Positions 1,385 to 24,791 of a stretch of 33,358 nt of DNA are shown piece by piece. Each line of letters starts with the position of its first letter. The stretch's first letter is position 1. Made by a program: the position numbers and the translations under genes. The stretch is from a virus (Duplodnaviria; Heunggongvirae; Uroviricota; Caudoviricetes), in IMG/VR virus record IMGVR_UViG_2740892218_000011, one strand, 5' to 3'. The notes below the pieces were generated by a model that did not search any database, was not told the DNA's origin, and worked only from the letters and a program-made list of their open reading frames with translations.

Positions 1385-2035
1385 TTACAAATTAAAAAAC
1401 ATCCTAGAAATGGCACCACCTACCACCCCCCCTACGCAGATAAAGAATATTATTTCTTTTGGATAAAGTCGGATTAATTCTGAAGCACGAAGTCGGACTT
1501 CTGGTAAGGTCGAATTCTCTGTGTTGCTTGATACCGATTGTTGCTCTAACCACGACAATGCAGACTGCAACTGAGAACGAGTAAGATCGTTTAAACGTCC
1601 TGTACCGAAATTGATATGGCAATACCGCAGAAGTTTTTGTCGAAGTCCACAGTCTTCACTGTTACGTAGTAATAAACTTACAAGAGCCTTACAGGCATCA
1701 TGATCTTTACATCGCTCAAGCATTGCATGCAGAAAACTCTCCGCTGTTTTATATTGATTTACTGTCATATCATCAATACCAGCTACACCAATCTCCGCAT
1801 GTACTTTTTGCCAAATAATAAACGCTTCAGTATTGCTAGCTTCTGCAATAGCAGCAACCAAGCTATTTAGCTCCTTACGCTGAGCCTTAAGCAAAGGGCG
1901 ATCGTCATCATCATTATTCGAAGGGATTGCGATATTGACGGTATGAGAACCATCATATCGCCCTATCTGAATATTCTTTTCGTGAAAATCACGCCCAGCA
2001 ACGCGATTGTTTGAACCGTTTGAGTTGACGGCCAT
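1385..2035 (-). CDS. Tail-anchored membrane protein of unknown function (immunity-operon cargo)
   Basis: 216 aa; strong SD (AGGGAGGTG) 12 nt after the repressor stop; single C-terminal TM helix (IIFFICVGGVVGGAISRMFF); N-terminus shares the motif NNR[VI]AGRD[FY] with the repressor C-terminus. Confidence 0.6.
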   Translation of the reverse strand: MAVNSNGSNNRVAGRDFHEKNIQIGRYDGSHTVNIAIPSNNDDDDRPLLKAQRKELNSLVAAIAEASNTEAFIIWQKVHAEIGVAGIDDMTVNQYKTAESFLHAMLERCKDHDACKALVSLLLRNSEDCGLRQKLLRYCHINFGTGRLNDLTRSQLQSALSWLEQQSVSSNTENSTLPEVRLRASELIRLYPKEIIFFICVGGVVGGAISRMFFNL

Positions 2036-2050
2036 GTCACCTCCCTACTA

Positions 2051-2455
2051 TCACCTACCCTTAGTTTCGTTATAGTCACGCCCAGCGATACGGTTATTAC
2101 CGCCAGAAATATTTAACTCACGTCCTGATGGCTGAGTTTCCTTTTCACTGGCCGCACCTTTTAAAGCCCCGATCACCGCGTTTTTCACATCTAACGAAGC
2201 TGCTCGAAAGCGAGTAATCAACTCCTGCTCATCATCGTTATAAGTTTCAGGTGAGTGAATTCCCAACACAACATACTGAACATCAAGACCAAAACGAGAC
2301 AGCGCTGCCAAATACGCAGCATCAGGAAAGCTATCTCCTTTCTCATATCTAAGCTGAGTTAGCTTTTTGACTCCACCAATGTCGCTCATAGCAACTTGAC
2401 TAAGTCCCAATCTTTCCCTTTCCTCACGCAACCTCTGACCAATATCATTTTTCAT
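2051..2455 (-). CDS. Immunity repressor, HTH_XRE family (C/CI-like)
   Basis: N-terminal HTH (IGQRLREERERLGLSQVAMSDIGGVKKLTQLRYEKG); divergent from the early operon; start placed at the internal Met (MKNDIGQ...) because the longer ORF would overlap the divergent gene start. Confidence 0.75.
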   Translation of the reverse strand: MKNDIGQRLREERERLGLSQVAMSDIGGVKKLTQLRYEKGDSFPDAAYLAALSRFGLDVQYVVLGIHSPETYNDDEQELITRFRAASLDVKNAVIGALKGAASEKETQPSGRELNISGGNNRIAGRDYNETKGR

Positions 2456-2531
2456 ACAAAAAACCTTGACAGGTATCTTTTTTGATACCAAAATGATTTC
2501 ACGAGCTATTAGATGATCACAATATATCACT
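2456..2531. promoter_or_regulatory. Divergent lysogenic/early promoter-operator region
   Basis: 76-bp gap between divergent repressor and early genes; TTGACA hexamer at 2466-2471 immediately followed by perfect palindrome GGTATC-TTTTTT-GATACC (2472-2489). Confidence 0.45.
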
Positions 2532-24182: not shown

Positions 24183-24791
24183 ATGCTTTTTATGCAAATT
24201 GGCTATATTCGCGTATCAACAAATGACCAGAACACGGATTTGCAACGCAATGCGCTCAATAGCGCAGGATGTGAACTGATTTTTGAAGATAAAATCAGCG
24301 GAACAAAATCAGCCAGACCGGGATTGAAAAAACTGCTCAGAACGTTATCAGCGGGGGATACGCTCGTTGTCTGGAAACTGGACAGGCTGGGCAGAAGCAT
24401 GAAACACCTGATCACACTGATTGAGGAATTGCGGAAAAAAGGTGTCAATTTTCGTAGTCTGACGGATTCAATTGATACCAGCACCCCAATGGGACGATTT
24501 TTCTTCCACGTGATGGGCGCCCTGGCTGAAATGGAACGTGAATTAATTGTAGAGCGTACACTGGCCGGACTGGCAGCAGCCCGCGCACAGGGGCGAATTG
24601 GTGGGCGTCGCCCGAAACTGACAAAAGAGCAACATGAGCAAATAGCGAGGCTGATTAAAAACGGCCACGACAGAAAACAGCTGGCCATAATTTACGACAT
24701 CGGTATATCGACGATTTATCGTTATCACCCTGTAGGTGACACGCAACCCGGAGGAATAATTGAGAATACTCAGGAAACAAAAAACCGCTAA
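24183..24791 (+). CDS. Serine DNA invertase (Hin/Gin/Pin/Cin family)
   Basis: 202 aa; N-terminal catalytic region IGYIRVSTNDQNTDLQ with active-site Ser, resolvase fold motifs (VVWKLDRLGRS), C-terminal HTH. Confidence 0.9.
   Translation: MLFMQIGYIRVSTNDQNTDLQRNALNSAGCELIFEDKISGTKSARPGLKKLLRTLSAGDTLVVWKLDRLGRSMKHLITLIEELRKKGVNFRSLTDSIDTSTPMGRFFFHVMGALAEMERELIVERTLAGLAAARAQGRIGGRRPKLTKEQHEQIARLIKNGHDRKQLAIIYDIGISTIYRYHPVGDTQPGGIIENTQETKNR

Follow-up and report, generated by a model that had tools for sequence, protein, structure and literature searches.

A short motif matched between the C-termini of predicted phage repressors and the N-termini of the proteins encoded next to them

Here, we describe a short peptide motif that lies at the C-terminus of a predicted phage immunity repressor and again at the N-terminus of the small, putatively membrane-anchored protein encoded by the next gene. 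The pair was found in a complete P2-like prophage of 33,358 nucleotides (IMG/VR record IMGVR_UViG_2740892218_000011, Caudoviricetes), the whole of which we refer to as the window, and pairs of the same kind, each with its own version of the motif, recur in P2-like and Mu-like phages of several bacterial groups. A matched interaction motif is well supported, and on balance we favour the reading that the repressor tail and the partner N-terminus constitute a homotypic motif of the cross-beta type that couples the immunity repressor to its membrane partner, with amyloid-type templating as the leading, and unproven, mechanism. The exit from lysogeny in P2-like and many Mu-like prophages is poorly understood, in particular how the signal to leave is sensed, because their short repressors lack a RecA-cleavable domain, and the role of the small membrane proteins encoded beside repressors is equally obscure. 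The matched peptide would tie the genetic switch physically to the cell membrane, in a concrete form that can be tested.

The motif and its matched pairs

The best local alignment of the two full-length proteins from the window joins residues 114–130 of the repressor, which ends ...SGRELNISGGNNRIAGRDYNETKGR*, to residues 3–19 of the partner, which begins MAVNSNGSNNRVAGRDFHEKNIQIG. Over this stretch, LNISGGNNRIAGRDYNE in the repressor against VNSNGSNNRVAGRDFHE in the partner (start of the protein, MAVNSNGSNNRVAGRDFHE), 10 of the 17 residues are identical and the BLOSUM62 score is 62, a value that none of 5,000 protein shuffles reaches (mean 29, maximum 55). A preliminary description of this DNA had pointed to the recurrence of the repressor tail at the start of the next protein, and both peptides are indeed present, on the minus strand. 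At the DNA level the similarity appears as a direct repeat of 34 nucleotides with a start-to-start spacing of 87 nucleotides, which includes an exact 11-mer, TCACGCCCAGC, at 1989–1999 and 2076–2086. The two copies are 76% identical, and none of 5,000 shuffles reaches the DNA alignment score; the significant repeat covers about 34–51 nucleotides rather than the roughly 60 bp first proposed, and the spacing originally put at about 70 bp was only approximate.

Two neighbouring copies of a sequence can be a leftover of DNA history, namely a duplication or insertion scar (the latter raised in the preliminary description), the junction of a split fusion or the product of local gene conversion. The short distance between the copies, their common 11-mer and the shared frame of the two open reading frames (ORFs), which lie 15 nucleotides apart, would suit such an origin. 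Even within the core motif of the window (NNRxAGRD...E), however, 4 of the 8 identical residues are specified by different codons, and across 22 pairs the codon is the same for only 102 of 217 identical residues (47%; 53% differ), at a nucleotide identity of 53–71%. The motif is also kept in both protein families across phages of gamma- and betaproteobacteria, the frame relation varies between loci and three stops, TGA TAG TAG, separate the ORFs of the window. Because codon usage differs at identical residues, we reject a scar or gene conversion, and consider any explanation from DNA history very improbable; the similarity is held at the level of the protein, and the motif is under protein-level selection. 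Fusion of the two ORFs by read-through or frameshifting was rejected too, given the three stops here and loci elsewhere in which the frame differs or the genes overlap by 4 nucleotides.

The motif is conserved in homologues of both proteins and across genera. In about 120 partner homologues of 56–97% identity, from Klebsiella, Serratia, Erwinia, Enterobacter and other Enterobacterales, the N-terminal or 'head' copy follows the pattern N-S-x-G-x-x-N-R-x-[AS]-G-R-D-[FY]-x-E. Nine loci in eight other genera each have, immediately upstream of the partner gene, a gene for a helix-turn-helix (HTH) protein of about 127 residues ending in ..INVSGxGNRxAGRD[FY]NENKK, and this tail, which we call type 1, is retained even where the partner is only 33–46% identical to the protein of the window. 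The type-1 consensus reads sinVSGsGNRvAGRDYNEnKK over 53 unique tails and tVNStGeqNRvAGRDFNENkIQ over 60 unique heads. The motif is likewise conserved in most repressor homologues, which share the HTH domain and two following helices and then diverge into differing types of tail; G, N, Q, S, V and I abound in all of these, and lysines stand at their ends. When the last five residues are set aside, 70 unique tails are enriched in N (2.7-fold), S (2.3-fold), G (2.1-fold), Q (1.6-fold), V (1.3-fold) and I (1.2-fold), and depleted of K (0.43-fold), P (0.26-fold) and L (0.04-fold); K makes up 40% of the last five residues themselves.

That the pattern is general, and extends to thousands of phage repressors, was not foreseen in the preliminary description. 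We compared around 25 loci with tail-bearing repressors, from P2-like and Mu-like phages of Enterobacterales, Gilliamella, Pseudomonas, Burkholderia and Ralstonia (including B3, BcepMu, KS10 and KS5), and in all of them the tail matches the N-terminus of a downstream protein, the product of the very next gene in all but one. The two genes are always on the same strand, with a gap of -4 to +124 nucleotides and a median near 10. In Brenneria, for example, the repressor tail QVFHGDINGQFAGNKIVN is followed by a protein that starts QEFNGTAQGQFSSRDIIN, in Gilliamella GKVVGQVSSQNIYN is followed by NNVVGQVAANNIYN, in a metagenomic Mu-like phage NQTFHGSVGQSVAGSITN by SQDFHGEVGQAAGGDINN, and in phage B3 the tail of ORF18, ISVTGDGNRTAGRDFHE, is matched by the start of ORF20, IEVTGSNNIVAGRDFIE. 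Further matched pairs are KS10 gp13/gp12, BcepMu gp17/gp18, KS5 gp11/gp12 and those of vB_FUB41 and RS-AB1, together with a second Gilliamella type, a Pseudomonas aeruginosa prophage and metagenomic loci. An E. coli relative of the repressor that has no tail lacks any neighbour with the motif.

The two copies co-vary. For 16 non-redundant pairs the mean score within a pair is 44.2 against a mean of 24.4 between pairs, each tail ranks its own partner first to fourth of the 16, and none of 200,000 permuted pairings reaches the observed sum of scores. In 13 of the 16 the best alignment of the full-length proteins is one between the extreme C-terminus and the extreme N-terminus. When three repressors were selected from the representative search with only the tail as criterion, each proved to have a matching N-terminus downstream (3 of 3). 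In an unbiased scan, a profile hidden Markov model (HMM) built from only 153 repressor tails was run against 1,216 six-frame ORFs from the window and 31 loci; after the repressors themselves it retrieved about 24 downstream partners, aligned at about residues 2–26 in nearly all cases (20–50 in BcepMu gp18), and the first unrelated ORF appeared at E 0.55. Motif types that co-vary in this manner would constitute a ready-made collection of interaction tags, orthogonal to one another.

The family of these repressors is a large one: among the representatives of clusters at 50% identity, its profile matches 14,767 at E <= 0.001 and 4,685 at E <= 1e-10. It includes the laboratory-growable phages B3, BcepMu, KS5 and KS10. 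Tails of this kind are present in 66 of 141 new top representatives, about half of the best-scoring ones. With a 40-residue type-1 motif query that combined the consensus of tail and head, tblastn against phage records matched phage 520873 and B3 only, and a query with the whole repressor yielded more loci.

Several individual loci carry variants of the pair. In Ralstonia phage RS-AB1 (PP316168.1; locus L027, 2033–2401) the start annotated for the gene after the repressor (MIALAS.., 2195) looks too late; translation from a start at 2033, in the same frame, yields MKSRFEFHGEVKKVINGTT.., and this agrees with the repressor tail EMVFHGAVGDVKNVSGD. A Candidatus Symbiopectobacterium locus (L007, 4001–4631) combines an altered repressor tail (..GNRVAGNNFHENKK) with a broken 5' part of the Flk_N gene, a state that fits a pair decaying together as its prophage degrades. 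One further subtype, seen in locus L031 and in proteins P0227, P0350 and P0372, has VQVG or VQIG in tail and head (..GSVQVGYAGGGVSV.., then ..AAVQVGQAGGNVTV..), and we noted by eye the likeness of this tetrad to the core of RHIM-type amyloid motifs.

The motif is modular, occurring on partners with different bodies. In the window and at many other loci the partner body is a Flk_N domain with a C-terminal anchor, in L017 it is a zinc ribbon with a transmembrane helix, in L018 a coiled coil with an anchor, and in L031 a protein of 77 residues; B3 ORF20 and the partners in L019, L029 and L030 have several transmembrane segments. A single motif type can thus sit on different bodies (Flk_N here, multi-transmembrane in B3), and a single Flk_N body can bear different motif types. 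The N-terminal carriers are all small (77–260 residues) and mostly have membrane segments, and family searches gave no match to an NTPase among them. At the metagenomic Mu-like locus L016 (3318–3710) there is a second small membrane protein, with two transmembrane helices and the N-terminus MRMEFNGNVGQVAGGDIYNYG, which matches both the repressor tail and the Flk_N head of the same locus, so that one tail is accompanied by two motif-bearing partners. The converse arrangement is found in a Salmonella enterica prophage (GCA_053165235.1; locus L022, 1794–4185), where four tandem XRE-family HTH paralogues precede a single Flk_N gene; three of them have an intact type-1 tail (..NVSGNSNRVAGRDYNEKK and similar), the tail of the fourth, which adjoins the Flk_N gene, is degenerate (..ISDARNISDTGNNENK), and several tailed repressors may here share one partner.

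Possible functions of the motif

We regard the motif as a homotypic interaction module because it is short, terminal, disordered, conserved, matched within the products of adjacent genes and carried on interchangeable bodies. The disordered repressor tail and the disordered partner N-terminus would be the two halves of a matched, co-evolving motif pair, with the partner probably translated from the same lysogenic transcript as the repressor. The two copies would bind like with like, zipping into a shared intermolecular beta-sheet, plausibly a cross-beta stack of the amyloid type, by means of which one partner would communicate its state to the other. Fungal HET-S/NWD2 pairs, bacterial BASS pairs and E. 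coli Bab/Agp, all treated below, operate in this way. Signalling could run in either of two directions, which we hold to be about equally likely: the membrane protein may capture or template the repressor and so control induction, or the repressor may do the sensing and turn on an effector at the membrane that brings about exclusion or abortive infection. In the commonest tail pattern, QxFHGxVGQxVxGDVxN..VxFxVG, read by eye, hydrophobic residues alternate with G/N turns.

A bolder version of this proposal, which we put forward tentatively and think less probable than the coupling itself, is that repressors of the large P2-like and Mu-like class are parts of a prion-like amyloid-templating switch, the tail converting together with the N-terminus of the partner. 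Membrane-borne cues would then flip the decision between lysis and lysogeny by sequestering the repressor or, alternatively, a perturbed repressor would fire the membrane effector. Were the interaction to be cross-beta, amyloid signalling would reach beyond immunity based on NLR proteins, to a transcription factor and its control, and into ordinary unicellular Proteobacteria. Were the prion-like switch to be true, this would be the first amyloid signalling pair with a transcription factor that controls a phage life cycle, and without an NLR-type sensor.

A number of observations weigh against a cross-beta coupling. In single-chain AlphaFold2 models both copies of the motif have a predicted local distance difference test (pLDDT) value of <50 and no regular structure, which is disorder and not a beta fold. 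Charged residues (R, D, E) are more frequent in the type-1 motif of the window than in typical amyloid cores, and the tails end in lysine-rich stretches, a trait that the amyloid motifs discussed below lack. Several of the pairs score weakly when taken singly (z 1–2.5), so that the case rests on the ensemble, and the partner KS10 gp12 is Flk_N-like and apparently soluble, with no obvious transmembrane segment, so that not every partner is anchored in the membrane. Co-variation within a pair could also result from a need for both copies to fit a single, fast-evolving third partner.

A related explanation is that the motif is a tag for a third party, where the same host or phage factor (a protease or adaptor reading a degron, a chaperone, or a membrane-targeting system) binds both copies and the two proteins never touch. 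Both copies are terminal, disordered and conserved, as degrons are, the tails end in stretches rich in K and R, which basic C-terminal ClpX signals of the MuA type resemble, and many of the loci belong to Mu-like phages, the stability of the phage Mu repressor being controlled by ClpXP through its C-terminal tail. Such a tag predicts one motif per host, yet a single host group can have several types, every one of them matched in its own pair: Gilliamella (L012 and L019), Enterobacterales (type 1 and the Brenneria/Pectobacterium type) and P. aeruginosa (B3 and L014) have two apiece. The lysine-rich end, moreover, lies outside the part common to both proteins. We consider a third-party tag unlikely, if worth keeping in mind. 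In the preliminary description a shared functional motif, either an interaction tag or a degron, had been offered as one possibility, and in this general form the suggestion stands; since the two copies co-vary pair by pair, an interaction tag is favoured and a pure degron fits less well.

Co-variation would also be explained if both copies fitted one pocket, as in auto-inhibition by a pseudosubstrate, whereby the Flk_N domain binds the repressor tail and the protein's own N-terminal copy serves as an internal mimic that a signal would later displace. Flk_N in part resembles three-helix modules with peptide or protein ligands, such as the C-terminal domain of Red-beta, which binds the SSB tail. 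The partner bodies are unrelated, however, and a zinc ribbon with a transmembrane helix, a multi-transmembrane protein and a 77-residue protein offer no common binding domain; in addition, AlphaFold2 leaves residues 1–40 undocked on Flk_N despite an alignment of 58 sequences. Auto-inhibition therefore seems to us improbable, and a like-with-like coupling of repressor and partner remains the reading that we favour.

The two proteins and their setting

The features of the region are collected in Table 1. Transcribed on the minus strand, in this order, are the HTH gene, the gene for the 216-residue Flk_N protein, a DUF2511 gene and int (1–1002), and on the plus strand beyond the HTH gene are Arc-like and Cox-like genes followed by replication gene A (GPA). 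The HTH gene is divergent from the Arc-like and Cox-like genes, as these are annotated in phage 520873, and lies at the integrase end of the prophage; this gene order puts it in the slot where P2-type phages keep the immunity repressor. Mu-like loci have the same layout, with the repressor gene beside ner-like and transposase genes. The region of interest is 98.8% identical to Escherichia phage 520873 (Peduoviridae, Xuanwuvirus), and DNA close to positions 1000–2760 of the window is present in 525 of 5,426 complete E. coli genomes.

Table 1. Coordinates of the repressor, its partner, the shared motif and neighbouring features in the window
Feature	Positions	Strand	Basis or remarks
DUF2511 protein, 115 residues	1008..1355	-	Hydrophobic N-terminal stretch, possible signal peptide; between Flk_N gene and integrase
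216-residue protein gene: N-terminal motif region, helical Flk_N domain, C-terminal transmembrane anchor	1385..2035	-	phrog_5825, E 6e-101; AlphaFold2
C-terminal hydrophobic helix, putative membrane anchor, residues 192-215	1391..1462	-	AlphaFold2 helix; conserved ..YPKEIxxxFxxGxxxGAxIF end
Helical Flk_N domain, residues 48-172	1520..1894	-	Confident in AlphaFold2
Conserved N-terminal region of partner, residues 1-40	1916..2035	-	Predicted disordered monomer; pLDDT <50 at residues 1-27 and 32-38
DNA direct repeat, copy 1	1978..2011	+	Repeat finder family D1; encodes part of head motif
Head copy of shared motif, VNSNGSNNRVAGRDFHE, residues 3-19	1979..2029	-	Alignment to repressor tail
Spacer between repressor and Flk_N genes	2036..2050	-	15 nucleotides, TAGTAGGGAGGTGAC on coding strand; GGAGG ribosome-binding site and two extra in-frame stops; read from sequence
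XRE-family HTH protein gene, 134 residues, immunity-repressor position	2051..2455	-	ORF list; likely start ATG 2455
Disordered C-terminal tail, residues 103-134	2054..2149	-	pLDDT <50; basic end TKGR here, NENKK in most relatives
DNA direct repeat, copy 2	2065..2098	+	Repeat finder family D1; 76% identical to copy 1; encodes part of tail motif
Tail copy of shared motif, LNISGGNNRIAGRDYNE, repressor residues 114-130	2066..2116	-	Local alignment with partner N-terminus
Two conserved helices, residues 74-102, ..ELITRFRAASLDVKNAVIGALKG..	2150..2236	-	Precede tail; AlphaFold2 helices 74-85 and 88-102, pLDDT ~80-88
HTH DNA-binding domain, residues 1-65	2261..2455	-	AlphaFold2, five helices, pLDDT >90
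Divergent control region between repressor gene and early genes (Arc-like side)	2444..2497	.	Imperfect 20-nucleotide inverted repeat, 2444-2463 and 2478-2497

The ORF of the repressor is open over 2051–2530, with a GTG at 2530, and homologues begin MKNDIG, at 2455. Its family matches are to HTH_31 and HTH_3 of Pfam (HTH_31 at E 8e-5, below the gathering score) and to the repressor families PHROG 8, 4 and 3 (PHROG 8 at 3e-14), and a profile search of the PDB matched it to the N-terminal domain of the P22 C2 repressor (E 5.9e-7). The homologues KS10 gp13, KS5 gp11 and that of Ps59 are annotated as repressors in their own phages. By sequence, the HTH protein is an XRE-family repressor of the P22 C2 type, with a predicted role in immunity. 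The pair of helices before the tail is conserved in the alignment (A3), with the consensus ..YRxAPLAVKAAALAALTAG, and a scan of PADLOC-DB v2 with the repressor gave nothing beyond weak, HTH-only matches to RmrA. The inverted repeat upstream overlaps a promoter-like site on the plus strand (TTGACA-17-CAAAAT, 2466–2494, by consensus matches only), which makes this region a candidate operator and early promoter.

Pfam PF27202 (Flk_N) is assigned, in precomputed annotation, to nearly all partner homologues. The NCBIfam match of the window protein to Flk is partial (residues 36–169, E 4e-16), and since its 59 bits are far under the equivalog cut-off of 353 the protein is not Flk itself. By comparison with Flk (PMC13344023) it probably consists of a cytoplasmic body with a C-terminal anchor in the inner membrane. 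Despite its predicted disorder, the region of residues 1–40 holds many of the invariant or nearly invariant residues of the protein, namely N4, S5, G7, N10, R11, G14, R15, D16, E19, I24, D28, G29, H31, T32, N34 and P38. No flagellar genes lie near the prophage-borne Flk_N gene, and no toxin or defence family in Pfam, NCBIfam or PADLOC-DB v2 matches the protein. A reading as a type II toxin–antitoxin pair with an XRE antitoxin is not supported, the downstream protein matching no known toxin family in these collections. A portion of the Flk_N model gives good superpositions on two phage recombination modules, NinB (1pc6) and the C-terminal domain of Red-beta (6m9k, 8tfu). Such modules have partner proteins or the SSB tail as their ligands, and the resemblance of the model to them hints at a protein-binding role.

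Several features of the wider prophage were noted along the way. In the record of phage 520873 (NC_049344.1; locus L001, 2422–3065) the Flk_N gene is unannotated and comes back from tblastn as four pieces, and the integrase is given as two coding sequences; this assembly probably carries frameshift errors. The place of the DUF2511 gene is filled by other cargo genes in related loci, and because the cargo differs in this way we regard the slot between the Flk_N gene and the integrase as a variable moron position. At 7925–9202 on the plus strand there is a gene for a ParM-type, actin-like segregation ATPase (StbA_N and ParM domains, E 7e-82), followed by an ORF of 103 residues, the two lying between gene A and ORFs presumed to be head genes (a role assumed without a family scan). 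A plasmid-partition module is an unusual cargo for a P2-like prophage, and its position is what we take to be the slot where P2 carries old/tin. A serine resolvase/invertase (Resolvase and HTH_7) is encoded at 24183–24791, also on the plus strand, in what P2 gene order leads us to assume is the tail-gene part, and suggests an invertible host-range segment like those of Mu Gin and P1 Cin.

Comparison with known systems

A literature search that included a 2026 review of amyloid switches, and whose coverage was not exhaustive, revealed no link of amyloid signalling or of a shared motif to phage repressors. Individual features of the pairs do have precedents. In the transposable phage Mu the immunity repressor has a short, flexible C-terminal tail, which is a ClpXP degradation signal under regulation and through which the activity of the repressor and induction are controlled; the tailed repressors resemble it in bearing such a tail. 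The Mu repressor is not, to our knowledge, known to share its tail with the product of a neighbouring gene, whereas a matched copy on the next protein is the defining feature here. The layout of the lysogenic operon in the window is also that of lambda cI-rexA-rexB and of other exclusion genes in repressor operons, in which a gene for a membrane protein lies just downstream of the repressor on the same strand; we know of no peptide motif common to the Rex proteins and cI, nor of a physical link between them and the repressor.

Expression of a downstream accessory gene from the repressor transcript in lysogens has been described for the beetrevirus Fc02 (PMC9936078). We considered Fc02 as experimental support and set it aside, since tblastn with the B3 ORF18 repressor matched only B3 and Ps59, so that the Fc02 repressor is apparently no homologue and serves as an analogy only. 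Flk ('Fluke'), an inhibitor of the flagellar type III secretion switch (PMC13344023), shares with the partner in the window a Flk_N domain and the combination of a cytoplasmic domain and a membrane anchor at the C-terminus; it differs in that the match is partial, as described above, and the gene in the window is prophage-borne.

The closest parallels come from amyloid signalling. In fungi, HET-S/NWD2 and other fungal amyloid signalling sequences (FASS) involve adjacent genes, a short homotypic motif and one partner at the membrane, and follow a like logic, in that a terminal motif transmits a conformational state between two proteins; they differ from the repressor pairs in being eukaryotic and in pairing an NLR sensor with a HeLo pore-former, with no transcription factor. 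Their bacterial counterparts, the bacterial amyloid signalling sequences (BASS), comprise BASS1–10, for which a composition bias was reported (Dyrka et al., bioRxiv 10.1101/2020.01.06.895854), and BASS11, found in the E. coli prophage defence pair Bab/Agp (bioRxiv 10.1101/2024.11.07.622273), which shares with the pair in the window its prophage location. As in the repressor pairs, a motif of about 20–30 residues is found at the C-terminus of one protein and again at the N-terminus of a second, whose gene is adjacent and collinear, the genes are separated by tiny gaps or overlap, and the composition is rich in N, Q, G, V and I and poor in P and L; K is likewise depleted, in the repressor tails before their last five residues. 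Both also have many motif families, each matched within its own pairs, a single motif placed on different effector bodies and occasional pseudo-repeats in one partner (here BcepMu gp18). In BASS systems, however, the C-terminal carrier is a Bell/HeLo or other death effector and the N-terminal carrier an NLR/STAND or TPR-GreAB-PIN (TGP) sensor, whereas here the former is an XRE-family HTH DNA-binding protein, predicted to be the immunity repressor, and the latter a small membrane protein with no NTPase. The repressor pairs are further set apart by their lysine-rich tail ends, by hosts that are unicellular Proteobacteria and by an amyloid state that is, for them, proposed from sequence.

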